64,000 bases of DNA from a bacterium (GTDB lineage Bacteria; Patescibacteriota; Minisyncoccia; Phycocordibacterales; CAIZIN01): contig JANNXY010000042.1 of the NCBI GenBank assembly GCA_031409775.1, positions 165 through 64,164 on the forward strand, in the 5' to 3' direction. The notes under the pieces are model-generated. The model saw only the letters and a list, made by a program, of their open reading frames with translations. It did no database searches and was not told where the DNA came from. The translations under genes and the position numbers were made by a program. Shown piece by piece: positions 13,716 to 45,995 of the stretch (position 1 is the stretch's first letter; each line of letters begins with the position of its first letter).

Positions 13716-16559
13716 TCAATTTCCGTCAACTACAATACTGACTAGCCTGCCAGGGACGTATATTTCCTTCTTTATTACCCTCCCGGCGATCCACTTATCC
13801 ACAGCTGGTAGGGCTCTAGTAAGCTCAATAACATCTTTCTGTGTCGCTTCCCTGCTTACTTCTAGTTCAGCCCTAACCTTGCCATTTACCTGTATCGCAA
13901 TCTTTATAGTATCTGAAACAAGCTTGGATGCATCGTATGAGGGCCAGTTTGCCTTGTGGACAGAGGATTTGTGGCCTATCTGGCTCCAGAGCTCTTCGGT
14001 TACATGTGGGGCAAATGGGGCAAGTAGCTGGAGCACGGTCTCGTAGACTTTATTATTTACGCTTTCTTCTTTCTCTAGTCTATTTAAGAGGATCATAAGT
14101 GTAGAGATGGCGGTGTTGAACGACATTTTCTCTATATCTTCGCTTACTTTCTTTATACTTTGATTAAGTAGAATTTCTACGTCAGAGGGAGTTTTAATCT
14201 TCTTGTCCAATTTCTCTGCTAGCTTCCAAACGCGTTCCACGAACCTACGTGAGCCAACTACACTATCTGAACTCCATGCAACAGGTTGGTCAAATGGACC
14301 CATGAACATTTCAAATACACGGAGACTATCTGCTCCATAGATCTTTACCAAGTCATCCGGATTAACAACATTACCCTTTGATTTGGACATTTTTTCTCCG
14401 CCTTCAGCAAGTATTAGCCCGTGGGAGGTTCTCTTAGCGTATGGTTCAATCGTAGGAACTTCTCCGATATCATAGAGAAATTTGTGCCAGAATCGAGAAT
14501 ACAAAAGATGCAGCGTAGTATGCTCCATGCCGCCGTTGTACCAGTCCACTGGGGTCCATTTATCAAGCTTATTCTTGTCAGCGAAAGATTTTTTATTCTT
14601 TGGGTCTATATATCGCAAATAATACCAAGAAGATCCAGCCCAGTTGGGCATTGTATCTGTTTCCCTTTCAGCATCGCCCTTACACTTCGGGCATTGGACG
14701 TTGACCCATTTGGAAATAGTTGATAGCGGGGACTCTCCGTTGTCAGTGGGCTCATAATGCTTTACTTTGGGCAATACGACCGGCAAATCCTTCTCTGGTA
14801 CAGGTACCCAACCACAATCATTACAATTTATCATTGGAATTGGCTCTCCCCAATATCGCTGGCGAGAGAAGACCCAGTCTTTCAATTTATACTTTACGAC
14901 CTTACGGCCGAATTCATTTGTAATTTTTCCTTTTGCTTCATTTGCAGTTAGTCCATCAAACTCGCCTGAGTTGATTACAATTCCATCGCCTGTGTAAGGA
15001 GGGAAATATTCTGAACTCATGCGTTCGAGCCAGAACTTGAGCTCTGAGTTTACCATTTTGCCTACAACGAATTCCTGAGGGGAAACCCACAATATTTCAT
15101 TGGTTTCTTCTTCACCAGCAGCTATTTCAGTTCTATCGTTTCCAATAAGTTCGAAATACGCAGCGGTCGTGATGGCCACTCTGTTTTCATCTTTGTGTTT
15201 AGCAAAGTAAGAAGCTTGCACCGGTCCCCCGAGAGTTTTTATAAATTTCAAATTTGTGTAGCCAGTTTCCTCTATAACTTCGCGGACAGCAGCTTGTTCT
15301 GCGCTTTCATTTTCTTCTATCCCACCTATCACCACGGTATCCCATCCAAATTTACTATTGCGGATAATCAAGTATTTATCTTGGTTCGGATCGTACACTA
15401 TCGCATGTGCATTCTTCCTTACTTTAGAGGACTTGTCTGACCTCGGAGGATTCACATGGTCTACAACCGAAGGCATGATTACGTCTCTTATTTCCAAATC
15501 GTATTTCTTTGCGAATTTAAAGTCACGTTCATCGTGAGCTGGCACTGCCATTACTGCACCTGTTCCATAATTAACCAGAACATAGTCTGCTATCCAAATC
15601 GGAATTTCTTCCCCTGTTGCAGGGTTTATGGCTACTACGCCTTTTACTTCCACCCCAGTCTTTTCCTTGGTAGCATCAGTTCTGTCTATCTCGGTTTTGT
15701 CTTTTGATTTTTTTATATAATCCTCTACTTCCTTTTTATTTTCTATTGGGAGTTCAGCTATCAGCCTGTGTTCTGGTGCTAGCACGATATAGGTTACGCC
15801 ATATAGTGTGTCGGCACGAGTGGTAAATACTGTGATTTTCTCAGAACTGTCCTTGATCTGGAAATCAATCTCCGCACCTTCACTCCTACCAATCCAATTG
15901 CGTTGCTGGATCTTTATCTTTTCAAGGAAATCTACAGTGTCCAAATCTTTGTCCAATCTGTCTGCGTATTTGGTGATAGCAAGCATCCATTGATCCTTGT
16001 CCCTCTTTTCTACTGCAGTTCCACATCGTTCACATTTACCATCTACTACCTCTTCGTTGGCGAGGCCGATTTTATCTTTGGGACACCAATTTATATTCAT
16101 TTTGGATTTGTAAGCCAAACCTTTCTCAAACATCTTTAGAAATATCCACTGTGTCCATTTATAGTATTCGGGATCAGTTGTATTGACCTCTCGTGACCAG
16201 TCAAAGGAAGCTCCTAAGTTTTTAATTTGTTTTCTGAAATTACCTGTATTTTGCTTAGTAACAAACGCGGGCTGTTTACCAGTTTTAATAGCATAGTTTT
16301 CAGTAGGAAGTCCAAATGCATCCCATCCCATGGGATAAAGCACGTTAAACCCTTCTACTCGTCTCTTCCTTGCAATTGCATCCAGGGCAATATATGGCCT
16401 CACATGACCGACATGGAGACCGTCGCCAGACGGAAAAGGAAATTCAACCAGTGCATAGAATTTAGGCTTATCTGTCTTTTCGCTTGTTTTATAAAGCTTC
16501 TTCTCTTCCCACTTCTTCTGCCATTTCTTCTCTATTTTCTTGTGATCATAAGACTTCAT
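13716..16559 (-). CDS. leuS: leucyl-tRNA synthetase with inserted Nudix-fold domain
   Basis: HVGH (HIGH), editing-domain TTRADT and AVPAHDERD motifs, and KMSKSKGN. At 947 aa it is longer than E. coli LeuS because of a ~140 aa insertion containing GGIEENESAEQAAVREVIEETGY, which fits GX5EX7REUXEEXGU. Confidence 0.95.
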   Translation of the reverse strand: MKSYDHKKIEKKWQKKWEEKKLYKTSEKTDKPKFYALVEFPFPSGDGLHVGHVRPYIALDAIARKRRVEGFNVLYPMGWDAFGLPTENYAIKTGKQPAFVTKQNTGNFRKQIKNLGASFDWSREVNTTDPEYYKWTQWIFLKMFEKGLAYKSKMNINWCPKDKIGLANEEVVDGKCERCGTAVEKRDKDQWMLAITKYADRLDKDLDTVDFLEKIKIQQRNWIGRSEGAEIDFQIKDSSEKITVFTTRADTLYGVTYIVLAPEHRLIAELPIENKKEVEDYIKKSKDKTEIDRTDATKEKTGVEVKGVVAINPATGEEIPIWIADYVLVNYGTGAVMAVPAHDERDFKFAKKYDLEIRDVIMPSVVDHVNPPRSDKSSKVRKNAHAIVYDPNQDKYLIIRNSKFGWDTVVIGGIEENESAEQAAVREVIEETGYTNLKFIKTLGGPVQASYFAKHKDENRVAITTAAYFELIGNDRTEIAAGEEETNEILWVSPQEFVVGKMVNSELKFWLERMSSEYFPPYTGDGIVINSGEFDGLTANEAKGKITNEFGRKVVKYKLKDWVFSRQRYWGEPIPMINCNDCGWVPVPEKDLPVVLPKVKHYEPTDNGESPLSTISKWVNVQCPKCKGDAERETDTMPNWAGSSWYYLRYIDPKNKKSFADKNKLDKWTPVDWYNGGMEHTTLHLLYSRFWHKFLYDIGEVPTIEPYAKRTSHGLILAEGGEKMSKSKGNVVNPDDLVKIYGADSLRVFEMFMGPFDQPVAWSSDSVVGSRRFVERVWKLAEKLDKKIKTPSDVEILLNQSIKKVSEDIEKMSFNTAISTLMILLNRLEKEESVNNKVYETVLQLLAPFAPHVTEELWSQIGHKSSVHKANWPSYDASKLVSDTIKIAIQVNGKVRAELEVSREATQKDVIELTRALPAVDKWIAGRVIKKEIYVPGRLVSIVVDGN

Positions 16560-28443: not shown

Positions 28444-30024
28444 TTAAACCACTTCCTTAAATCTCTTGATTAGAAATTCGCGGTCGAGGACAGAGAGGAA
28501 CCAGCCGGCCTTGGGACCAGAAGATTTTCCTAGAATGGAGAGGTAGATCGCGGAGAAGAATTCTTTGGGTTCGATTTGAAGACTTTCTTTGATCTCATGA
28601 AGCTTGGTGTGGAATGCCTGGCCTTCGATAGACTGATTCGCCTCGATGAATTCTACGAGCAGAGTAAGTGCCTGTTTCTGGATATCAGAGAAGTTCTTTG
28701 CACTTTCTGGTACTTCCTTTTTAATTTCGAATTTATATTCCTCGGGAGCGAATTCTGCAATCCATTTCTGTACATATGTGATACGGTGAAGCAATTCTTT
28801 CTTGTCTTCGTCGGTGAGAGTAATTTCTTGGAGTTTTTCAATTTCCTTTACTGGATCCAAATGCGGCATCTGGGAAATGAATGCGACAGTTGAAAACCTC
28901 GGCAAATGCCTCTCGGTAATATTGCCCTGATCCTCTGGCTTATGCGATAGGTAAAAGGCGCGGGTGAAATCGTCTTTAACACCTCCGAAATACTTTTTCG
29001 CGTAAGTATCGTAGTTATCAAATAGAATTGGCACGGTATCTCCTGCCGGATCGAATTCGAGGACCTTCATTGGTTCTTTGTATATAAGTAAAAATCTAAA
29101 TAACTCTGCAGGGAGTAAATCTGCAATCTCTCGCGATGATGACCCAGCACCTTTGGAACTGGACATTTTCTTGCCACCGACTTGAAAGAATTCATAAGGA
29201 ATGTTAAATGGTGGCTCAACACCGAACACTTCGCGAGCGATGGTATCTGCGACTTCCCTTGCACCACCTTTGGTCGAGTGATCCTTGCCGCCTCCCTCTA
29301 CATGGACTCCGATTATCTTGAACTTGGCAGCCCATTCTACCTTCCACGGAAGCTTGGCACGACCATCAAACGGAGATATCCTGCCCTGCTTGCCACATCC
29401 CGTGGCCCATTTGACGAAGTCACCACATGTATACTCGACTGTCTCCCCGTCCCAGTTTCGAGCCTTGGTAGTCCCCACCTTGCCACACTGCTCACATACC
29501 ACAGAAAGCGCGAGCCAATCATCAGCACGAACTGAGCCAGAAATTCTCTTGTAAATTTCTCGGATCTTGTCTGCATTATCTAGAGCGAGCCTGATAGCTT
29601 CGTTATATTTACCAGACTTGTACAATTCACTAGATCGGTAGAATTCCGGATAGAATCCTGTATCAGTTATCACCTGCATGAACTCGCTCGCGAAATATTC
29701 TGCATAGTTGGTTGCTATCGCATCAGGAGACGGGACGTTGCACAGAGGCTTGCCCATGTGCTCTCTGAATTTATTTTCATCCAGATACACCGGCAATCCA
29801 TCCATCGGATCATAGTCGTTGATTTCGTAAAGGAATTTGTGAAAGATTCCTTTCTCCTTTAGCACCTCATCGATCATGCCATGTATTGCAACACCTCGCA
29901 TCGATCCTACATGTACGCGACCAGAGGCGGTCTTCTCGTCACGTATGACAAGAGGCTTGCCGCTCTTTATAACAGCGTCAAAATGCTTTTCTATTTCCGA
30001 TCCTATTCGGTCGGTCCAAAACAT
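28444..30024 (-). CDS. lysK: lysyl-tRNA synthetase, class I (LysK type)
   Basis: HVGS (HIGH-like) at RVHVGSMRG and KMSSSKG signature typical of class I LysRS; 526 aa. Confidence 0.85.
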   Translation of the reverse strand: MFWTDRIGSEIEKHFDAVIKSGKPLVIRDEKTASGRVHVGSMRGVAIHGMIDEVLKEKGIFHKFLYEINDYDPMDGLPVYLDENKFREHMGKPLCNVPSPDAIATNYAEYFASEFMQVITDTGFYPEFYRSSELYKSGKYNEAIRLALDNADKIREIYKRISGSVRADDWLALSVVCEQCGKVGTTKARNWDGETVEYTCGDFVKWATGCGKQGRISPFDGRAKLPWKVEWAAKFKIIGVHVEGGGKDHSTKGGAREVADTIAREVFGVEPPFNIPYEFFQVGGKKMSSSKGAGSSSREIADLLPAELFRFLLIYKEPMKVLEFDPAGDTVPILFDNYDTYAKKYFGGVKDDFTRAFYLSHKPEDQGNITERHLPRFSTVAFISQMPHLDPVKEIEKLQEITLTDEDKKELLHRITYVQKWIAEFAPEEYKFEIKKEVPESAKNFSDIQKQALTLLVEFIEANQSIEGQAFHTKLHEIKESLQIEPKEFFSAIYLSILGKSSGPKAGWFLSVLDREFLIKRFKEVV

Positions 30025-32522: not shown

Positions 32523-33205
32523 TTGATAGAAGAGGTAGTTTCAGGTAAACTAACATATATCTTCTGTAATGTAGCCTCACCTTCGGCTTCAACTGATTCG
32601 ACGATTCCTATTATGTATAACTCTCTCTCCCTACTATATACAGTGTCACCGACTTTTACATTTATATCGCGTGGTAAATCTGCAACGAATTTACCATTAC
32701 CTTGGCCTTTGAGAAATACTTCTGAACCATTTATATCTGCGTGTGTAGTAATATCCGGTGAAGTAATCATGGTGACTATAGAGAAATCTCTGAACACTTC
32801 TGTCACATTACCGACAAACATTTCTGCTTTGTAAGCTTGGTTCCCTACCACAACACCGTGCATATCACCACGATCTATCACGAGCTTGTCATACATTGTA
32901 AATGGAGGTCTACGAGTTATCTTGCTAAGGATTCCAGTACTAGTCGGTGCTGTTTCTAGCTGTGCTATAGAATCATATTGCTCTGACTTGACCAGTAGAC
33001 TTCGCAGTGTAAGCCCTGTGTCGCCATTATTTGTTTTACCAAATAAATTCGACTCAGTGAACCAGACAGGGTTTATAGTGCTGATTATGGCTGGTGCTAG
33101 TATGTAGAGTAGTGCGATCACACATATCACCAGTGTCACAACGACAGCTTTGGAAGTGATAGATTGAGTATTTCTTTTCTTATTGAATCCTGACTGGTAA
33201 TTCAT
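32504..33205 (-). CDS. mreC: rod shape-determining protein MreC
   Basis: N-terminal TM, coiled-coil, and beta-rich C-terminal domain; follows mreB. Confidence 0.75.
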   Translation of the reverse strand: MNYQSGFNKKRNTQSITSKAVVVTLVICVIALLYILAPAIISTINPVWFTESNLFGKTNNGDTGLTLRSLLVKSEQYDSIAQLETAPTSTGILSKITRRPPFTMYDKLVIDRGDMHGVVVGNQAYKAEMFVGNVTEVFRDFSIVTMITSPDITTHADINGSEVFLKGQGNGKFVADLPRDINVKVGDTVYSRERELYIIGIVESVEAEGEATLQKIYVSLPETTSSIKWVILK

Positions 33206-34247
33206 CTTCGTTTTGAATTAGAACGTCTTTGTAATCTTCTAGGTTCTCTAGGATTATACCCGTACCCCTAGCCACTGCAGTGAGTGGGTCCTCGGCAATA
33301 AATACTGGAATCTGGAGATGCTCATGCAGGAGCTCGTCTAGACCCTTGATAAGTGCTCCTCCACCTGTGAGGTGCACACCCCGATACATTATATCTGATA
33401 AGATCTCTGGTGGCGTGTTCTCTAGCACCTCCTTGGCTGCTTCTACCAGGGTATCTATCGACTGGCCCATCGCCTCTCGTATGTCTGCATCGGTTATCAC
33501 AACCTCTTTGGGTAGACCGGTGACCAGATCCCGACCCCGTACAGCGATCTCTAGTGTATCTGACTTGGGTATTACTCTGCCTATTCCCATCTTTATCCTC
33601 TCTGCAGTTCTCTCGCCCATGAGTATCTTTAGTTCATTTCTAATATAAGAAATAATATCACTGTTGAATTTGTCCCCTGCGATTTTTAGGTTTTTTGATC
33701 TTACAATTCCACCTAGCGAAATTACTGCTATGTCAGTTGTACCTCCACCGATGTCTATCACCATGTTACCCACAGGTTCTTTGACAGGGAGTCTGATACC
33801 TATCGCAGCTGCCATAGGCTCCTCTACGATATGTACTTCGCGCGCGCCGGCTGACCGCGTAGCGTCACGCACGGCGCGCGTCTCTACGTTGGTGACACCA
33901 GACGGAACACCTACTACAACGCGTGGTCCGAACAATTTCTTCTGACCTTCTTGGACCTTGTTGAGTAGATAAGACATCATTTCCTCTGTTATCTCGTAGT
34001 CAGATATCACTCCGTCGATGAGCGGGTGTACTGCTGTGATGTGTCCCGGGGTTCTACCCAGCATCATCTTGGCTTCCATACCTACAGCGACAACTCGGCC
34101 TGTTTTCTGATTTATCGCCACGACAGATGGCTCGTTGATCACCACTCCTTTGCCGGGAATATAAACCAGAGTGTTCGCTGTACCGAGATCGATTCCGATG
34201 TCGTTGGAGAATTTGGCGTAGAATTTTTCGAAAAAGTTAGAGAACAT
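33180..34247 (-). CDS. mreB: rod shape-determining actin homolog MreB
   Basis: Actin-fold phosphate motifs (IGIDLGTANTLVY; DIGGGTTD); 355 aa. Confidence 0.95.
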   Translation of the reverse strand: MFSNFFEKFYAKFSNDIGIDLGTANTLVYIPGKGVVINEPSVVAINQKTGRVVAVGMEAKMMLGRTPGHITAVHPLIDGVISDYEITEEMMSYLLNKVQEGQKKLFGPRVVVGVPSGVTNVETRAVRDATRSAGAREVHIVEEPMAAAIGIRLPVKEPVGNMVIDIGGGTTDIAVISLGGIVRSKNLKIAGDKFNSDIISYIRNELKILMGERTAERIKMGIGRVIPKSDTLEIAVRGRDLVTGLPKEVVITDADIREAMGQSIDTLVEAAKEVLENTPPEILSDIMYRGVHLTGGGALIKGLDELLHEHLQIPVFIAEDPLTAVARGTGIILENLEDYKDVLIQNEDELPVRIQ

Positions 34248-35932: not shown

Positions 35933-37063
35933 CTATTTATTAAACATTGCAACATATTGGTACAATTCAAAAGATCGGTTTCTTGAAAAACCCGTTTTTT
36001 CTTTTAAGATCCCTTTTTCAACAAATTCCTCAATAAGTCGATTTGCTGTTATAAACACAACACCTAGTTCATGCGCTATCTGATTCACACCCATTATTGG
36101 CTGTGAAAAAAGTCTAAGTAATAATTTTTGTCCCAGTGGAGCACGCCTGCCCATTGTCATTATTTTTTTCTCATATTCTTGTCGTAGAGTTACTATATTT
36201 TCCAAAGTCTCTTTGCCTTTCGTTGCAGTACTGATAACCCCAGATAGAAAAAACTTTATCCATTGCTCTACACTATTTGATGAACGTACTAGAGTCAATG
36301 AGTCATAATATGAACCCTTATTTTTTGCAAAAAAGTCAGAGAGATAAAGCGTTGGACGTTGTAATACCCCACCTTCTACTAATTGAAGTGTGACCAACAA
36401 TCGTCCAATTCTCCCGTTACCATCCAAGAAAGGATGGATGGTTTCAAACTGATAGTGACTTATAGCCATTTTTAATAATATTGGTATTTCTAGTTGCTTG
36501 TTATGCCAAAATTTTTGCAGATCGGAAAGCAATTCTTCCACTTCAGTGGGGTGCGGTGGGATAAAGAAGGCATCTTTCAGACTCGATCCTCCAATCCAAT
36601 TTTGACTTTTTCTAATTTCGCCAGGGGTTCTGTGTTCACCGCGAACACCGGATAAAAGAATTTTGTGAGCAGATTTCAACAATCTCATAGACAAAGGTAG
36701 ATTCTCGAGTTCTTTTATCGAATGGTTTATTGCTTGGATATAGTTTTGCACCTCTCTCCAGTCATCTCTACGCTCTGGTTCAATATCTTCTTTCGGGGAG
36801 AGTATTTCATCTATCCCAGTCTTAGTTCCTTCAATACGACTAGATGTTATTGCCTCTTTGGCAATATGCATCTTGATAAAATAGTCCACATCAGGAACGA
36901 GTGTTGAGTAAGCATTGAGTTCACCTAAAAGCCTCATTGCCTCGGAAAGCAAAATATCAATCTTTTTATCTTCCCATTCAAATGGTTTATTAATCAGAAA
37001 AGGACTAAAGCACTTATATTCCAACTGCTGCTTATATATACCCGCTTTAAATGTTTGCTTCAT
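35933..37063 (-). CDS. Fic/DOC family protein (putative AMPylator) with N-terminal inhibitory motif and C-terminal winged helix
   Basis: Fic active-site motif [13 protein letters not shown]-terminal SxxxEG ([11 protein letters not shown]) inhibitory-helix motif, i.e. a class II Fic layout. Confidence 0.85.
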
Positions 37064-38793: not shown

Positions 38794-39813
38794 CTAAAAA
38801 GCCAGTGCCGCTGCGGACTCAAGTATCTGCTTTACCGATGAGCTCTGGTCGAGCAGGTACGATCGCATCTCTAGAATCATCCTCTGGTTCCTAATAGGTT
38901 TGTTGGTGTTACGCATAGCTGTGATTATCTGGTCCAATAAATCAACTGCACGGTCCTTGCCAAATTTCTCTGATTTGATTCCTTCGACTATTTTACTACT
39001 TTCTAGCAATAGCTCTTTTACGCTCAGTTTTATATCATTTATTTTATTACTTACTTTCGAATCAAATTTGGATTCCAGTCGCGATCTAAGAGTTGGTAGA
39101 ATACGTTCAGGGAATTGAGTAACGAAGAAAAAAACAGTATCTCGCGGCGGTTCCTCTACTACTTTGAGCAATGTGTTCTGTGCTTCTGCGTTCATGGTTA
39201 TAAACTCGAGCATCACTATCCTTTTCTTGTTTCCAAATGTGTGTCTAGATAAAGCATCTTTGACTTCGCGAGCTGTATCTATCTTGAAGTTGGTTTCTCT
39301 GTATACAAGCAACTCTAAATTACCTTTATCCTCTTTCGATAAAATCCCTTCTGCTATTTCTTTGGTCAAGAGGTATGCGTGATGCATCGGGGGTATTTTA
39401 GCATTTCCCCTCCTTATCCTAGGAGGGGTGGTCGTAGACCGGGGAGGTAGATTCTCTTGAATTTTACTTAAAACTCCACTTAGATTATTTCTTACTTCAC
39501 TATTCCAAAATCTTATAACGCTCAAATTTAATTCTTTGAAAAATTCTGTTCTTACTTTATCATATTCTTGATCTTCACTATGCGAATTCCCGTCGACTTC
39601 AATAATCAAACTCTTTTCACTGCAATAGAAATCAACTACATATCTGCCTATCCCCGTCTGCCTTCTGAATTTATAACCCAAGCCATTTCCTTTCAATTTT
39701 GACCAAAGTAAAACTTCCTCTTTGCTCATATTATGTCGGAGAAATCTTCTTTTTTCCTTTGAATTCGCTAGATTAAATATTCTATCAGTATTCATAGAAG
39801 AATTATACACCAC
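38794..39813 (-). CDS. holB: in-frame fusion ORF: DUF559 (Vsr-like endonuclease fold) domain + DNA polymerase III delta' (HolB)-like C-terminal part
   Basis: aa ~7-120 match DUF559 (KFRRQTGIGRYVVDFYCSEKSLIIEVDGNSHS...VIRFWNSEV). aa 143-339 match clamp-loader delta' (MHHAYLL..., LLKVVEEPP, LRSRL). The listed GTG start lies inside the inverted repeat, so the likely DUF559 start is the ATG at 39795 and the likely native holB start is the ATG at 39387. Confidence 0.65.
   Translation of the reverse strand: MVYNSSMNTDRIFNLANSKEKRRFLRHNMSKEEVLLWSKLKGNGLGYKFRRQTGIGRYVVDFYCSEKSLIIEVDGNSHSEDQEYDKVRTEFFKELNLSVIRFWNSEVRNNLSGVLSKIQENLPPRSTTTPPRIRRGNAKIPPMHHAYLLTKEIAEGILSKEDKGNLELLVYRETNFKIDTAREVKDALSRHTFGNKKRIVMLEFITMNAEAQNTLLKVVEEPPRDTVFFFVTQFPERILPTLRSRLESKFDSKVSNKINDIKLSVKELLLESSKIVEGIKSEKFGKDRAVDLLDQIITAMRNTNKPIRNQRMILEMRSYLLDQSSSVKQILESAAALAF
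39403..39447. repeat. right inverted repeat of DUF559 cassette (also encodes PPRSTTTPPRIRRGNAK linker)
   Basis: See the mobile_element entry; contains palindrome CCCCTCC-N8-GGAGGGG. Confidence 0.6.
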
Positions 39814-39855: not shown

Positions 39856-40869
39856 CTACCTCTTTGACAATATGGTTTTCTTGTATGCATCTAGGTGTTC
39901 GAGTGCAGTACCTGTGCCTTTGGCCACACAATGCATCGGGTCCTCGGCAAGCGTGCATTTAACACCCGTACGTCGATAGACAAGTTCTGGGAAGTTGCGT
40001 AGTAGTGATGAGCCACCTGTCATAATTATACCCTGGTCGATAATATCTGATGCGAGCTCTGGTGGGGTTTCCTGTAATACATCCTTTATAGCCTTGATCA
40101 TCTCGCGAAGCTCTTTGGAAATTGCTTTCACTATTTCGTTAGTCTTGATCTCTGTTGATCGTGGAAGTCCAGTGAGGAAATCACGGCCTTTGACTATCAC
40201 CACGAGCTCTTCGTCGAGGAAGACCGCCGAACCTATTTCTAGCTTTATTCGTTCGGCGGTCTTGTCCCCTATCGCTAGGTTGAAATTCTTCTTTATATAA
40301 TCAGTTATTGCTGCATCTATCTTGTTGCCTGCACATTTGACTGATGTAGATGCTACTATACCTCCGAGCGAGATCACCGCCACATCTGTAGTACCACCTC
40401 CAATATCCACTACCATGTGACCTTTGGGTTCATATATCGGTATCCCTGCGCCGATCGCAGCAAGTATGGGCTCTTTGACCACATAAGCGTTCTTGGCTCC
40501 AGCTTTGATAGTCGCCTCGATCACTGCCCTACGCTCCGTTGAAGTGATTCCTGCGGGAACAGAAACCATTACCTCTGGTTTCCAGATATTCCATTTACCC
40601 AATGATTTGTTCATATAGTATCGGAGCATTGCTTCTGTCACACGATAGTCAGCGATCACCCCGTCTTTGAGCGGTCTATAGGCTATGATGTTCTCTGGGG
40701 TTCGACCTATCATAGCCTTGGCATCGAGCCCAACAGCCAGAATCCTATTGTCCTGTTCTGATACAGCTACAACAGAAGGTTCGTTTAGAACTATGCCTTG
40801 ACCAGGGACAAAAACCAGTGTATTTGCAGTTCCTAGATCTATTCCTAATTTGGGTGAAAACCAGCTCAT
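39856..40869 (-). CDS. MreB-like actin homolog (second paralog)
   Basis: LGIDLGTANTLVF and DIGGGTTD motifs; 337 aa; separate from the mreBCD operon. Confidence 0.85.
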   Translation of the reverse strand: MSWFSPKLGIDLGTANTLVFVPGQGIVLNEPSVVAVSEQDNRILAVGLDAKAMIGRTPENIIAYRPLKDGVIADYRVTEAMLRYYMNKSLGKWNIWKPEVMVSVPAGITSTERRAVIEATIKAGAKNAYVVKEPILAAIGAGIPIYEPKGHMVVDIGGGTTDVAVISLGGIVASTSVKCAGNKIDAAITDYIKKNFNLAIGDKTAERIKLEIGSAVFLDEELVVIVKGRDFLTGLPRSTEIKTNEIVKAISKELREMIKAIKDVLQETPPELASDIIDQGIIMTGGSSLLRNFPELVYRRTGVKCTLAEDPMHCVAKGTGTALEHLDAYKKTILSKR

Positions 40870-40914
40870 TTGGTGGTAATAGTAATATCTTTTGCTTAGG
40901 TTTACAATGTAAAC

Positions 40915-42795
40915 ATGTATTTAATCCGAGTAATACCAATATCTAGAGGAATTGACAAGGACTCGCTTACATATTTCAGCCTCAGAGACTGCCCTGTGGG
41001 ACACATCGCAAGCATCCAGATAAGGAGTAGAATGGCCCCAGCTATAGTGTATTCAAGCGAGAAAGTGGAGATGGAGAAGAGCTCTATCAAGCAACTCCCG
41101 TATGAGTTGAAAAAGATTTCCGATGCTGGGAGCGGTAGTCAGCCATTTTTTAACCAAGCATTTATGAAGGCTGTAGAAAATATCGCAACACATCATGCAT
41201 CATCTGCAGGTGCGGTGATCGAAGCTCTCACACCATCTAACGTACTCTCTGAGCATGTATCAATCATATCAAAGGTGGCAGAAATTCCAGTCGACAATCA
41301 CCCCACAGAGAACCTGATGTTCCAAGCCGACGACGAGACTCGACTTGCACATTACAAAAGCATAATAAGAGAAGAATTCGCCAAGAAAAATTCTGTATTT
41401 ATACTTGTACCGACAGTTCACGAAGCCAACTTTATCAAAGAAGGTTTAGAAAAAGGTATCGAATCATATACCTATGTAGCTCACGGTGGTCTGTCCAAGA
41501 AAGCTTCTGTACATCTATGGAACGAAGTGATAAGCAATTCACACCCTGTATTGGTTATAGGAACTGCGATATTTCTATCTATACCGCGAAGATGGAATAC
41601 GATCATAGTAGAGCGCGAGAGTTCTAGGCATTACAAAATGTCACAGAGACCGTTCCTAGATGTTCGACGTGTCGCAGAGAAGCTGGCCCTGCATTCGAAA
41701 GCGACATGTATATTTGCAGACGTGATGCTACGCGCAGAAACTCTCTGTAGGTACGAAGATGGCGAGATACACGAAGTGAGTAAACCCCAATGGAGGTCTA
41801 TGTCGAATTCCAAGATAAACCTAGTAGACCTCCGTAGTCTCAAATTCTCTATACTAAGTAATGAGCTGAGGCAACTGATTTCTGACAACAAATCCAACGG
41901 TCGGAGGCTGTTTATCTATGTATCACGTAGGGGTAATTCTCCACAGATTATATGTCGGGACTGTGGCAACACGGTTATGTGTAACAGGTGTAGTGCACCC
42001 GTAGTGCTGCATACATCAGCTGCCAAAAGTGATCGATACTTCCTCTGCCATAGTTGTGGCGAGCGACGTACCGCAGATGAGTCATGCACTCACTGCGAGA
42101 GCTGGCACCTACAGGGCTACGGTGTGGGCATAGAATCTGCCCAAGAACTCCTGAGTAAAGAATTTCCAAATATCAAAATATTTAGAATCGACTCCGACAC
42201 TACACCCACAGACAAGAAAGCGACAGCTGTAATAGATGAATTCTATACCAACCCCGGTAGCATACTACTAGGCACTGACCGTGCGCTGTACTACCTCAAG
42301 GAACCGATCGAGAATGTCGCTATAGCATCACTCGACTCTCTGTTCTCGCTCCCCGACTTCCGAATCCAAGAAAAGATATTCCACACCATTCTACAGCTAC
42401 GATCGCTCTCGTCACATACATTCATCGCACAGACGCGCTACACCGACAATCCGTTGTGGAACTATGCGCTCAAAGGAAACCTCATCGACTTCTACCGCTC
42501 AGAAAAGGACTCTCGCAAGCAGTTCCACTATCCACCGTACAAGACACTTATAAAGATCACCTACACAGGTACACCAGCATTAGTCCGCAAGGAAATGTCG
42601 AACCTCAAATCAATATTGGAACCGTATGTTGTAAACATCTTCCCTGCGTTTATCGAGAACAAGAAAGGTAAATTTGTAATGCATGGACTACTCCGCCTCG
42701 ACAAGCGTGACTGGCCGAACCTGGACCTCCATGACAAACTCCGCTCCCTCCCGCCAAGCTTTGCCGTAAATGTCGATCCCGAGAATTTGCTTTAG
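40915..42795 (+). CDS. priA: primosomal protein N' (PriA) homolog with degenerate helicase ATPase motifs
   Basis: PriA-like 3'-DNA-binding N-terminus and the characteristic CxxC-rich Zn-binding insert (CRDCGNTVMCNRCSAPVV...CHSCGERRTADESCTHCES) are present. No GxGKT Walker A was found. The DEEH box position reads IIVERESSRHYK. Confidence 0.65.
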   Translation: MYLIRVIPISRGIDKDSLTYFSLRDCPVGHIASIQIRSRMAPAIVYSSEKVEMEKSSIKQLPYELKKISDAGSGSQPFFNQAFMKAVENIATHHASSAGAVIEALTPSNVLSEHVSIISKVAEIPVDNHPTENLMFQADDETRLAHYKSIIREEFAKKNSVFILVPTVHEANFIKEGLEKGIESYTYVAHGGLSKKASVHLWNEVISNSHPVLVIGTAIFLSIPRRWNTIIVERESSRHYKMSQRPFLDVRRVAEKLALHSKATCIFADVMLRAETLCRYEDGEIHEVSKPQWRSMSNSKINLVDLRSLKFSILSNELRQLISDNKSNGRRLFIYVSRRGNSPQIICRDCGNTVMCNRCSAPVVLHTSAAKSDRYFLCHSCGERRTADESCTHCESWHLQGYGVGIESAQELLSKEFPNIKIFRIDSDTTPTDKKATAVIDEFYTNPGSILLGTDRALYYLKEPIENVAIASLDSLFSLPDFRIQEKIFHTILQLRSLSSHTFIAQTRYTDNPLWNYALKGNLIDFYRSEKDSRKQFHYPPYKTLIKITYTGTPALVRKEMSNLKSILEPYVVNIFPAFIENKKGKFVMHGLLRLDKRDWPNLDLHDKLRSLPPSFAVNVDPENLL

Positions 42796-43166
42796 TTTGC
42801 ACCCAGATAATCTTTGATTCTTTGTTTACTCTCATTTTCAGATTCACCTTTGAAGTAAATTTCAATAAATTCAACGGTAGTTGTCGCAGGATAAAAGGCA
42901 TAGATGATGCGAATACCACTTTTTGCCCCACGACCCTTGAGCGACTTACAGGCAAACTTCTTTAGTTTGCAAATTTTTATTTTATCTGTACAAAAGTTGG
43001 GAATCAAGAAAATGGAATTAATATATTCCAAACCTTCATGGTAAGGCTCTATTGTTGCAATCTTGGCGAACTCTAAATCATCTGTAAGAGACCTAAACTT
43101 CTTTTGCAGAAACTTTAAATCCCTTTGGAATTCACTTGTTTCTCTATAAATAATCTTGATCGTCAT
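42792..43166 (-). CDS. RelE/ParE/HigB-superfamily toxin-like protein
   Basis: 124 aa; C-terminal KSGIRIIYAFYP...IEIYFKGESE resembles the RelE/HigB core (GxRxIY...I). Overlaps the upstream HTH-Panacea gene by 23 nt. Confidence 0.5.
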   Translation of the reverse strand: MTIKIIYRETSEFQRDLKFLQKKFRSLTDDLEFAKIATIEPYHEGLEYINSIFLIPNFCTDKIKICKLKKFACKSLKGRGAKSGIRIIYAFYPATTTVEFIEIYFKGESENESKQRIKDYLGAN

Positions 43167-43962
43167 AATTTCTTACAGAAGTTTTCTCAGTCCGATAAAA
43201 AACACCTTCATATTTAATTGGCTGATTTTCTTTGGTAACGATCCATGGGATATCCTCATGAGAGTAGTTGCTCAATTCTGTGGCATTTTTATTGCTTAAT
43301 CTCGCCAATACTTCATCGATGTGCTTTATTTCATTTGCACTGAGTACAGAGAGGTTAGCCTGCCTCTTTGGTAGGTATTTGGTCTGCCCATGTTGGAAAT
43401 AATTACTTTTTACGGTTTCTAGCTCGCCTTTGGACTCCATTGATTCTATGACCTTTTTGAACTCCACTGGAGTCGGGCCAAAATGATTCTTGATATATGT
43501 CGCACCAATGAGCTGTTCTTCGAACTTTTCGTAATAATCAAAGTCGATAAAGTAGAGAAGTTTGTACAGAACCGTCATCCCGACATTTGGCTTGCCACCA
43601 ACCCTTTCGAGTATATAAAGCAATACCTCTTTGAACTTCTTGATGTTTTTCTGCGGGACATCTATGCGCATTCCTATCGTTTCTTTTATTTCCTTTTCGT
43701 CCATTATTCTTATATCCAATTCGAAATTTTTTTTTCCAGAAATGAGGTTTTCAATTTTAATTTCGAAAATCTGTGCGATCTTTTGAGCTTGGGAAATAGT
43801 CAGCTCTTTCTTGCCTTTCTCCACCTCAATGTAGCTTGGGCGTGAAATACCAATCTTTTCAGCAATATAAGCCTGTGACAAATTTGCCTCGTTACGTAAT
43901 TCTTGTAGAAATTTATGTTTAATCATATCCAATATTATATACTCGCCATATTGATATGTCAA
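43144..43962 (-). CDS. XRE-family HTH + Panacea (DUF4065) domain antitoxin-like protein
   Basis: N-terminal HTH (LSQAYIAEKIGISRPSYIEVEKGKKELTISQAQKIAQIF). The central GMTVLYKLLYFIDFDYYEKFEEQLIGATYIKNHFGPTPVEF matches the DUF4065/Panacea KLxKLLYF...GxP...GPV pattern. Confidence 0.55.
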   Translation of the reverse strand: MTYQYGEYIILDMIKHKFLQELRNEANLSQAYIAEKIGISRPSYIEVEKGKKELTISQAQKIAQIFEIKIENLISGKKNFELDIRIMDEKEIKETIGMRIDVPQKNIKKFKEVLLYILERVGGKPNVGMTVLYKLLYFIDFDYYEKFEEQLIGATYIKNHFGPTPVEFKKVIESMESKGELETVKSNYFQHGQTKYLPKRQANLSVLSANEIKHIDEVLARLSNKNATELSNYSHEDIPWIVTKENQPIKYEGVFYRTEKTSVRNYDDQDYL

Positions 43963-44092
43963 TAATAGTTACAATAAAATTGTTAAAATAACTAACATAA
44001 TCTTGATTTTTAGCTCCCCGTACCCTATTACACAATCAAATATCTGTCAAATTCAGCTTTATTTTATTCCTCATTTATTGTATAAATACCCC

Positions 44093-44596
44093 ATGTCAAA
44101 GATAATTCAAAACGGTGATAAGGTGCTCCGCATGGAAGCAGAGTCAGTGGATCCCAAAATGTTTGGGAGCAAGAAGCTCCTCGCTATACTCAAGGATATG
44201 GCCAAGACTGCGAATGCCGAGCAGGACGCAGTGGCTATTGCTGCTCCACAGATCGGAGTGAGCCTGCGCATATTTGTGATTACTGACCGAGTTCGCGAGA
44301 TAATCAAGTCCCCCGACCTCCCACTAATTTATATAAATCCAACAATTATTAAGCAAAGCAAGGACAAGAAAGCAATGGAAGAAGGCTGCCTCTCGGTGCG
44401 CTGGCTCTATGGCAAAGTCCGCAGGTCCTCCCGCGTGACGATCGAAGCATTCGACGAGAGTGGCAACAAATTCACCCGTGGTGCCTCTGGCCTCCTCGCC
44501 CAGATATTCCAGCACGAGACCGATCACCTCGACGGCATCCTATTTATCGATACCGCCAAGAATTTAAGGGAGATGCTGCCAGAGAATCAGGATTAG
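44093..44596 (+). CDS. def: peptide deformylase
   Basis: EGCLS and QHETDHLDG (HExxH) motifs. Start reassigned to MSKIIQNGDKV; the N-terminal extension from 44003 is rejected. Confidence 0.9.
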   Translation: MSKIIQNGDKVLRMEAESVDPKMFGSKKLLAILKDMAKTANAEQDAVAIAAPQIGVSLRIFVITDRVREIIKSPDLPLIYINPTIIKQSKDKKAMEEGCLSVRWLYGKVRRSSRVTIEAFDESGNKFTRGASGLLAQIFQHETDHLDGILFIDTAKNLREMLPENQD

Positions 44597-44759: not shown

Positions 44760-45467
44760 ATGAAAAAATCAAAAACTTTTAAATTATTATCTCGCGCCGA
44801 GCGTGATGAAATAGAAATACTACTAGAAAAAGAATATTCTGGGAGATCAATTGCCAAAGCACTCTGTCGTTCTCCGAATACTATCTCGTATGAGATTAGG
44901 AAAAACGGTGGCAAGAAAAAGTACAAGGCTCAAAATGCTCACCAATATGCACAGACCAGAAGAAAAGATACCAAAACACAGTGGAAAAAGATTGAACACA
45001 ATAGCACTCTCAAAACCTTCATCATTGAGAAATTGAAATTACATTGGAATTCCGATGAAATCGCTGGATACATGAGGCGAAAAAAGCTAAAGTTTTATGC
45101 CTCAAAAACAGCTATCTATGAGTGGCTTAGGAGTGAGTACGGACAACAATATTGCAAGCATCTCTACTCTGGTCGATACAGGGTCAAACGCCACAAGACG
45201 AGCAAGAAGAAACGGGAGATGATTCCTAATCGAGTGAGCATTGAGAAGCGTCCAAAGGCCATTCTGAAGCGAGGTAGGTTTGGTCACTGTGAAGCTGATA
45301 CTGTAGTCTCAGCCAAAGATGGCTCTGGAGGAGTCTCAGTGTTTCAAGAAAGAAAATCTCGCTTGTATCAGGCAAAAAAGGCGCTAGGTATGAGTGCCAA
45401 AGAACATGTGATTAATCAAGAACCCCGCGGCAGAGCCGTCCCCTCGCAAAGCCTCGGCGGGGTATGA
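44760..45467 (+). pseudogene. IS30-family transposase remnant (N-terminal HTH and start of DDE domain only), interrupted by IS200-type insertion
   Basis: N-terminal HTH region and GHCEADTV (IS30 GHWEGDxI equivalent) followed by ERKSRLY. Homology ends at ~45430, where the IS200 right end begins. No C-terminal DDE/E part is found downstream. Confidence 0.65.
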
Positions 45468-45995
45468 ATTGATGCATGGTCTAGTGCCAAAGGGTGAGCT
45501 GTACTGATTCGACCGTCTTTCCCTGGTTTTCTATGTATTTCTTTACTATATCCCAGTTTCCACGCTCGCCTACTGTAGCGAGATAGTAACCATCACTCCA
45601 GAACTCTCCTCCCCACAGATCTTTACGCAGTTCAGGAAATCGCCTGAATAGTTGTTTGGCTGTAATGCTTTTGAACATCGTCACTACTTCGATACCTGAA
45701 TACTTCGGGTGATAAGAGCAGAGTATGTGAATATGGTTAATATCGCATCCTAGGTTTTCAAAATCGATTTCGTATCTTTCACCGATTTCCTTGGCGATTT
45801 CTAATACGGCGAGCTCCACTGGTTTGTCTAACAGAGCTTTGCGGTATTTGACGGGAAAGACTATGTGATAGTGGGTATTGTATGCGCAGTGATTGCTTTT
45901 CTTGACCATGCATCTAGTATATCTGAAAACCAAGGGTTTTCAGACTTTCCTTAGCAGAAACCCCGCCCTAGAAGGGACGGGGAATGGGGGAGATT
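45425..45995 (-). mobile_element. IS200-type element (tnpA only) with subterminal GC-rich hairpins
   Basis: Left-end hairpin CCCCGCCCTAGAAGGGACGGGG at ~45948-45975 and an imperfect palindrome at ~45436-45470 flank tnpA. The element is inserted into the IS30 transposase gene. Boundaries are approximate. Confidence 0.5.
45481..45933 (-). CDS. tnpA: IS200/IS605-family Y1 (HUH) transposase TnpA
   Basis: 150 aa; HUH motif HIHIL (INHIHILCSY) and the conserved catalytic Tyr region (WSDGYYLATVG) typical of IS200 TnpA. Confidence 0.85.
   Translation of the reverse strand: MVFRYTRCMVKKSNHCAYNTHYHIVFPVKYRKALLDKPVELAVLEIAKEIGERYEIDFENLGCDINHIHILCSYHPKYSGIEVVTMFKSITAKQLFRRFPELRKDLWGGEFWSDGYYLATVGERGNWDIVKKYIENQGKTVESVQLTLWH

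Follow-up and report, generated by a model that had tools for sequence, protein, structure and literature searches.

A PriA ortholog without ATPase motifs, and predicted pseudohelicase, in the Parcubacteria group

The 64,000-nucleotide stretch analysed here (the window), from contig JANNXY010000042.1 of the patescibacterial assembly GCA_031409775.1, carries a priA-like gene on its plus strand at 40915..42795. The product is a full-length homolog of the replication restart protein PriA. Because none of the helicase superfamily 2 motifs I, II, III, V and VI has been kept, it is regarded as a PriA ortholog by descent and not as a PriA helicase. We consider it likely that the orthologous PriA of this lineage has turned into a pseudohelicase, acting as an ATP-independent adaptor for fork recognition and helicase recruitment.

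A full-length PriA homolog with every ATPase motif replaced

The gene is an uninterrupted open reading frame (ORF) with an ATG start, 626 codons and a stop, and it contains no internal stops, ambiguous bases or long homopolymers. An identical protein (P0001) had already been recorded from the source assembly, on a contig of 64,908 bp. The protein matched the NCBIfam model TIGR00595, 'replication restart helicase PriA', with a score of 219.7 bits (E 6.2e-65), query residues 147-597 aligning with model positions 14-478 of 509. It also matched NF004066 (E 3.7e-65) and remained far under the PRK05580 sub-model cutoffs. PriA chains from E. coli and K. pneumoniae in the PDB (6dcr, 8fak and 4nl4) were matched with E values of about 1e-28. 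Together with the full-length fold match described below, these results confirm the identification as a PriA homolog that was made in a preliminary description of this DNA.

A Pfam scan of the query returned no significant match to DEAD, ResIII or PriA-WH, and its matches to Helicase_C and to the 3'-DNA-binding domain (3'BD, E 0.11) lay below threshold. E. coli PriA, scanned as a control, matched 3'BD (E 3.8e-32), WH (1.3e-30), DEAD (1.8e-22), ResIII (8.6e-15) and Helicase_C (5.9e-12), as well as PriA_C and Zn_ribbon_PriA. Motif positions were set by alignment with E. coli PriA from NC_000913, which placed the gene and its former motifs as follows.

40915..42795, plus strand: priA-like gene, predicted ATPase-dead PriA ortholog (ORF, TIGR00595, PDB PriA matches, AF2/Foldseek)
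41323..41346, plus strand: former Walker A (motif I), QADDETRL for GVTGSGKT; E. coli G224-VTGSGKT231 corresponds to query Q137-ADDETRL144
41611..41622, plus strand: former Walker B (motif II), ERES for DEEH; E. coli D320-EEH323 corresponds to query E233-RES236
41716..41730, plus strand: former motif III, ADVML for GSATP (alignment)
42271..42303, plus strand: former motif V, GTDRALYYLKE for GTQMLAKGHHF (alignment), with K544/G545 corresponding to Y459/Y460
42394..42417, plus strand: former motif VI, QVxGRxGR arginine-finger box absent and segment shortened (alignment)

The alignment reproduced exactly the pairing of DEEH with ERES given in the preliminary description, and it found QADDETRL where the Walker A sequence GVTGSGKT had been said to be missing. 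That description was right about Walker A and Walker B but understated the loss: motifs III, V and VI have disappeared as well, along with the Q-motif region and the winged-helix (WH) domain, and the trait is lineage-wide. Intact Walker A or B motifs are not present elsewhere in the protein or in any frame: a regular-expression search of the whole protein found no [AG]xxxxGK[ST], GK[ST] or DExH/D, and a six-frame scan of the gene with 300 nucleotides on either side found no encoded P-loop. UvrB, encoded in the same window, gave normal ResIII and Helicase_C matches, which indicates that the motif loss is specific to this gene and no artefact of composition.

A canonical set of 11 proteins was used for comparison, comprising E. 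coli PriA and ten further PriAs retrieved by tblastn of the E. coli protein against a plasmid collection and drawn from Alpha-, Beta- and Gammaproteobacteria, Bacilli, Clostridia, Cyanobacteriota and Bacteroidota. Although these proteins are only 33-40% identical to E. coli PriA, Walker A reads G-[VI]-T-[GS]-S-G-K-T in 11/11 (one with Ser at the third Gly), Walker B reads DEE in 11/11 (DEE[HQ]), and motif III contains A-T-P in 11/11, preceded by Ser in ten and by Thr in one. The K-G of motif V and the QVxGRxGR of motif VI are invariant (11/11 for VI), as are the motif IV arginines. None of these motifs occurs in the Parcubacteria family, whose identity to each canonical PriA is 19-22%, so that it forms a long branch. 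In the plasmid collection, 78 records had a PriA match, many of them chromosomes filed as plasmids. Motif-intact priA was also found on genuine large plasmids, namely 15 Pseudomonas records of about 170-200 kb and several Vibrio plasmids; examples are L088 (P. aeruginosa pNY5530-NR1) and L096 (Vibrio pSEA2).

The residues that stand in place of the motifs are themselves conserved. Q137 is found in 92% of the family, and the position of E. coli G229 holds Glu or Asp in 135 of 151 representatives, the sample to which the residue counts below refer. The Walker A lysine, K230 in E. coli, is Arg (query R143) in 150. At Walker B the D320 position is Glu in 119 and Asp in 32, the position of the catalytic Glu, E321, is occupied by R (65), K (37), H (14) or N (11) and by Glu in only 10, and E322 (query E235) is Glu in 141. 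The S356 position of motif III (query D269) is Asp in 135. In motif V the K544 and G545 positions hold P/S/L and Y/F/H, and motif VI shows a deletion of 2-5 residues, its length depending on the alignment, with a single conserved basic residue, R496 (R in 118, K in 16). The median frequency of the commonest residue across positions of the protein is only 0.44, and since the replaced ATP-site residues are conserved far above this value, they are under selection for something besides catalysis. The former ATP site has thus been rebuilt and is not in decay, and purifying selection acts on its replacement residues, which may form a structural charged network. Full-length ORFs and the kept cysteines speak for selection as well.

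Relatives examined for the motifs comprised the 120 closest database homologs and 150 representatives of 50%-identity clusters, 268 in all, and the motifs were lost in 268 of 268. Sequencing error, which the preliminary description had allowed for, is excluded by this identical state and by the full-length gene. The 120 closest homologs are 41-61% identical, full length and all motif-less, and those with organism names are labelled Patescibacteria, Taylorbacteria, Paceibacterota or Minisyncoccia. Among 1.84 billion cluster representatives scanned, relatives numbered 12,084 at E<=1e-3 and 2,120 at the stricter E<=1e-30. The top 150 are 35-50% identical, and a P-loop at motif I was found in 0 of these 150. 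At least 520 GTDB species-representative genomes encode a relative. Informative titles among 80 retrieved genomes were Parcubacteria, Taylorbacteria, Paceibacterota and Zambryskiibacteriota, the last of which NCBI taxonomy assigns to the Parcubacteria group of the Patescibacteria group. The trait belongs to the whole lineage and extends beyond the source genome.

Some record titles name other groups. About 35 of the 80 related records (within L003-L077) bear the title 'uncultured Candidatus Saccharibacteria bacterium' (TPA assemblies), and a further record, L059 (a 2.9-kb contig), bears the title 'Victivallales'. The PriAs concerned interleave with those from Taylorbacteria and Paceibacterota records, which makes the labels look coarse or mis-binned.

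Retained PriA modules and predicted fold

The domain order is that of canonical PriA from E. coli and K. pneumoniae (4NL4, 6DGD and 8FAK), namely 3'BD, the first RecA-like lobe (HD1), the second lobe (HD2) bearing a Cys-rich zinc-binding region (CRR), and a C-terminal domain (CTD).

40915..41235, plus strand: 3'-DNA-binding domain, approximately aa 1-107, modelled as a beta-barrel with helices and corresponding to E. coli 1-~110
41236..41307, plus strand: short variable linker, aa 108-131, replacing the WH domain and Q-motif region, with no counterpart of E. coli ~115-220
41308..41814, plus strand: RecA-like lobe 1 (HD1), approximately aa 132-300, without ATPase motifs (alignment to E. coli HD1)
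41815..42429, plus strand: RecA-like lobe 2 (HD2), approximately aa 301-505, bearing the CRR insertion (alignment and fold)
41926..41931, plus strand: retained motif IV arginines R338-R339, corresponding to E. coli R427/R428 (family conservation)
41944..42108, plus strand: CRR, aa 344-398, CxxC x4, eight Cys
42100..42108, plus strand: S396-W397-H398 patch on the CRR, with D349 at 41959-41961 (family-specific conservation)
42430..42792, plus strand: CTD, approximately aa 506-626, reached by TIGR00595 (to 478/509) and by the full-length Foldseek alignment, with conserved QTR, YPPF and W600

A Pfam survey of 74 divergent family members detected PF17764 (PriA_3primeBD) in 66 (best E 2.4e-11), Zn_ribbon_PriA in 14 and PriA_C in 7. 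DEAD was weak and present in only 2 and Helicase_C was weak in 8, whereas ResIII and PriA-like_WH (PF21213), both strong in the E. coli control, were found in 0 of 74. The linker that takes the place of the WH domain is the least conserved stretch of the protein. Retention of the 3'-DNA-binding region, as proposed earlier, is upheld by this survey and by structural alignment, the query's own match being the sub-threshold one given above. The Cys-rich zinc-binding insertion is likewise kept, with all eight cysteines (C347, C350, C356, C359, C378, C381, C391 and C394) present in the query. They correspond to E. coli C436, C439, C445, C448, C463, C466, C476 and C479 and are kept in 143-151 of the 151 representatives.

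In E. coli PriA, R427 and R428 line the pore and contact lagging-strand single-stranded DNA (ssDNA), and H455, E492 and D513 stabilise the rotated CRR (PMC13594977). The R427 equivalent is Arg in 146 representatives and the R428 equivalent is R or K in 145; at the other contact positions, H455 is H in 115 (Y in 32), E492 is E or D in 126 and D513 is D or E in 137. Because R427, R428, H455 and D513 are invariant in the canonical set, retention of these pore and CRR-UP residues is a general PriA feature and shows no special bias. A locked CRR-UP state had also been considered on the grounds that the histidines stabilising the DOWN state (H437, H599 and H600) are absent; the idea was dropped, as these histidines vary among canonical PriAs.

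The CRR carries a conserved patch, with D349 in 148 representatives, S or G at position 396, W397 in 148 and R or K at 398 in 125, and these positions are variable or gapped in canonical PriAs. E. coli PriA docks PriB in this place, through D438, S481, T482 and H483 (PMC10175261), where the Parcubacteria family has instead the D...SW[R/K] patch. Its pattern of conservation makes it a candidate partner- or ssDNA-binding surface.

An AF2 model of the query, built from a 118-sequence alignment, reached a pLDDT of 89.5 and a pTM of 0.88. Structural comparison of this model agreed with the sequence assignment: the top Foldseek match was PriA 8fak_H (E 6.5e-39, TMq 0.81, full-length alignment), followed by 6dcr (E. 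coli WH-deletion PriA) and then by 4nl4 and 6dgd. The first non-PriA family, comprising Mfd and DEAD-box proteins, appeared at E values of about 1e-7 to 1e-9, some 30 orders of magnitude weaker. A replicate model, made for P0264 (34% identity to the query), reached a pLDDT of 94.3 and left the ranking unchanged, with 8fak_H at E 1.7e-42 and TMq 0.82 and the remaining PriA chains at 0.62-0.69.

The mreB/priA/def locus and its neighbours

The gene occupies the ancestral mreB/priA/def locus. Synteny was counted over 80 related loci, with the following neighbours of priA in the window.

39856..40869, minus strand: mreB, divergent upstream neighbour, found upstream on the opposite strand in 62/80 related loci
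44003..44596, plus strand: def, peptide deformylase (Pfam Pep_deformylase, E 1.4e-45), found downstream on the same strand in 60/80 loci

Farther upstream, RRF, a HolB-like gene and rseP were found in 28-35 of the 80 loci. The order priA-def(-fmt) also adjoins canonical priA in two Clostridia, and this shared order supports orthology as against a stray paralog.

The divergent spacer between mreB and priA (40870-40914) is only 45 bp long, and a TACAAT hexamer ends 6 nucleotides before the priA ATG; this may point to a leaderless or very short-leader priA transcript. The MreB paralogs at 33180-34247 and 39856-40869 (both minus strand) are less than 7 kb apart. The copy adjoining priA is the syntenic one, and a neighbouring paralog was scored by Pfam MreB_Mbl. 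Between priA and def the synteny is interrupted by a toxin-antitoxin-like pair (42792-43962, minus strand), of which one member is an HTH_3 and SocA/Panacea antitoxin-type protein of 272 aa. The other is an overlapping ORF of 124 aa without a Pfam match, and its stop overlaps the priA stop by 4 nucleotides. The pair was found in none of the 80 related loci. The same loci held no counterpart of the HTH_38 ORF and IS200-type Y1 transposase that follow def (44760-45933), or of a Fic/DOC protein (35933-37063).

An ORF at 38794-39813 (minus strand) encodes a DUF559 domain (Vsr-like endonuclease; aa 19-122, E 8.8e-32) in frame with a HolB-like DNA polymerase III delta' segment (aa 163-246) that covers only Pfam model positions 68-152. 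In related loci, HolB homology starts at aa ~137-143, and on this basis the DUF559 part is specific to this genome, lying in or fused to the 5' end of holB. Elsewhere in the window, a leucyl-tRNA synthetase of 947 aa (13716-16559, minus strand) has a NUDIX domain embedded at aa 381-504 (E 1.7e-13), its Nudix box (GGIEENESAEQAAVREVIEETGY) intact; the insert comes directly after the editing domain, an unusual place. The lysyl-tRNA synthetase (28444-30024, minus strand) belongs to class I (PF01921, E 1.7e-85), not to class II as is usual in bacteria. The uvrA, uvrB and uvrC genes are also present.

Proposed role and alternatives

In E. coli, the K230R substitution (priA300) abolishes ATPase, helicase and translocase activity and leaves cells near wild type; the PriA-PriB pathway works in this mutant, the PriA-PriC route requires helicase activity, and engineered K230R and K230A/D PriA, devoid of these activities, still assemble primosomes (PMC5778457). 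ATPase-dead K230A PriA supports DnaB loading in vitro. In fork-bound structures determined by electron cryo-microscopy the CRR rotates, forms a pore round lagging-strand ssDNA and exposes the PriB dock, a state that requires ssDNA and not ATP, while the WH domain docks on the parental duplex (PMC10175261). D. radiodurans PriA, from a genome that has neither PriB nor DnaT, shows no ATPase or helicase activity but binds ssDNA, forks and, by direct contact, DnaB; PriAs of Deinococcus-Thermus have poor Walker A and B motifs, with the Walker lysine changed to arginine, and this state is conserved within the lineage (Lopper, Boone & Morrow 2015, PMC4504706). A 2017 review names Deinococcus as the sole exception (PMC5778457).

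The Parcubacteria family resembles the Deinococcus-Thermus pseudohelicase in its degenerate Walker A and B and in the Lys-to-Arg change at the K230 position. It differs in phylum (Parcubacteria/Patescibacteria group versus Deinococcota) and perhaps also in having lost motifs III, V and VI together with the Q-motif region and the WH domain, Deinococcus PriA being compared here by its published description only. The Deinococcus-Thermus protein is known from biochemistry, the Parcubacteria family from sequences and models. The Lys-to-Arg change is shared with priA300, but that is a single-residue laboratory mutant of an otherwise intact helicase, whereas in this family evolution has reshaped the entire ATP site. 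Similarly, the WH domain is missing from 6DCR by engineered deletion in an active helicase, whereas here its loss is natural and stands alongside the predicted loss of ATPase activity. With canonical PriA the family shares the fold, the eight zinc cysteines, the motif IV arginines, the H455- and D513-equivalent contacts and, in Clostridia, the priA-def neighbourhood; the low identity, the missing WH/Q-motif region and the five replaced motifs set it apart.

A PriA pseudohelicase is therefore a kind already known, and Parcubacteria are a second and, in species terms, far larger lineage. Literature searches combining PriA with Patescibacteria, Candidate Phyla Radiation (CPR), Parcubacteria or Actinobacteria found no description of this family in the library covered, and the only paper found to name both PriA and Patescibacteria concerns another phylum, UBP6. 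UniProt flags actinobacterial PriA as lacking detectable helicase domains; if this is right, the phenomenon would be broader than Deinococcus. A scan of metagenome contigs for D. radiodurans priA with its published forward primer gave five hits, all set aside as chance (GC 0.56-0.58, 38-codon ORFs).

As an adaptor, the protein would work as follows. The 3'BD would recognise the nascent leading-strand 3' end, and the RecA-like lobes, zinc-bound CRR, motif IV arginines and CTD would together bind and encircle the lagging-strand template ssDNA. The pseudohelicase would neither bind nor hydrolyse ATP and would therefore neither translocate nor unwind. Its substrates would be those forks or D-loops in which the template of the lagging strand has already become single-stranded. 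It would recruit the replicative helicase either directly, as reported for D. radiodurans PriA and DnaB, or through some partner. A candidate for a docking site is the family-specific D...SW[R/K] patch of the CRR. The preliminary description had predicted a catalytically dead protein kept for DNA or protein binding, and this prediction is strongly supported by the sequence, the modelled structure and the precedents of K230R and D. radiodurans PriA. Such a protein would imply, as was also suggested, a reduced or altered replication-restart pathway.

Several points weigh against this adaptor role. The TIGR00595 score of 219.7 lies below the curated equivalog cutoff of 230.35. Loss of ATPase and helicase activity is predicted from the replaced motifs, and fork binding, a role in restart and a partner are likewise what we infer. 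Both AF2 models are closest to the fork-bound 8FAK state (TMq 0.81 and 0.82), a preference that stands without a canonical PriA control, and the CRR-DOWN histidines of E. coli are E. coli-specific and so uninformative for the Parcubacteria family. DnaB, DciA, SSB, PriB and DnaT were not seen among the scanned ORFs of the 64-kb window. An additional, intact PriA or a different restart helicase could lie elsewhere in the genome, the window being nearly the whole 64.9-kb contig. NCBI labels on relatives are mixed between 'hypothetical protein' and 'primosomal protein N'', as would be consistent with the sub-cutoff score. That score, the label 'hypothetical protein' on some relatives and the origin in a metagenome-assembled contig could also suggest a sequencing or assembly error, a frameshift or a decaying pseudogene. 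We attach practically no weight to such an artefact, however: the ORF is unbroken and clean in its base calls, no frame encodes a P-loop, and hundreds of relatives, each assembled independently, align with the protein over its whole length and show the identical state; there are many invariant residues and high-confidence folds. Conservation across genomes refutes this explanation.

It is very improbable that the protein still works as an NTPase or helicase through non-canonical residues, for example with Arg143 in the role of the Walker lysine. The RecA-like fold is intact, and Arg143, Glu/Asp233 and Glu235 are conserved charged residues in the former active site. Against this, none of the P-loop glycines is kept, and most have given way to acidic residues, which would repel phosphate; R/K/H/N occupy the position of the catalytic Glu321, and motif III, the K-G of motif V and both arginine fingers of motif VI are gone; K230R by itself abolishes E. 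coli activity, and D. radiodurans PriA with that change is inactive. A specialised paralog with a regulatory or scaffolding function, retained beside a canonical PriA or other restart helicase, would fit a view confined to a 64-kb window and the occurrence of plasmid-borne extra priA copies in other bacteria. We judge it improbable, given that the ancestral priA-def position is occupied, that no motif-intact sequence was found among the 268 closest relatives and that record titles point to metagenome-assembled genomes of the Parcubacteria group, in which genomes are small and have few paralogs. Repurposing away from restart, for instance as a general helicase loader at oriC or as a sensor of branched DNA elsewhere, could account for the long branch, for the new and nearly invariant surface patch (D349, S/G396, W397, R/K398) and for the fact that no known loader was seen in the window. 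This too is unlikely, since all PriA fork-recognition modules and pore-lining residues are kept, the housekeeping synteny is unchanged and the nearest experimental analogues still act in restart.

The preferred adaptor role admits a bolder version, which we put forward as a doubtful but conceivable extension. Restart would be motorless across ultra-small bacteria, in at least the Parcubacteria group and possibly further into Patescibacteria, with PriA a constitutively primed, single-protein adaptor for helicase loading. The former ATP pocket would serve as a charged latch, in which [E/D]142-R143, E/D233, E235 and D269 would hold the RecA-like lobes and CRR in the rotated, pore-forming state that E. 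coli PriA takes only after fork binding. The D349/S396/W397/[R/K]398 patch would be the dock for a partner, candidates being DnaB, DciA or an SSB/OB-fold protein.

Given priA300 and Deinococcus PriA, a pseudohelicase PriA is not very surprising, but it is useful for the study of replication restart and of CPR biology. Here the erosion extends to every ATPase motif and to the WH domain, in a family of at least 150 and up to about 2,100 clusters at 50% identity, found in at least 520 species-level genomes. Replication-restart capacity is easily under-called in these genomes, because TIGR00595 scores fall below the cutoff and proteins are frequently labelled 'hypothetical protein'. The conserved replacement residues and the new CRR patch offer concrete, testable handles, and the family supplies a natural minimal PriA for the study of fork recognition and helicase recruitment. 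It supports the view, derived from priA300, that recognising forks and recruiting the helicase, not unwinding, make up the essential and conserved job of PriA.

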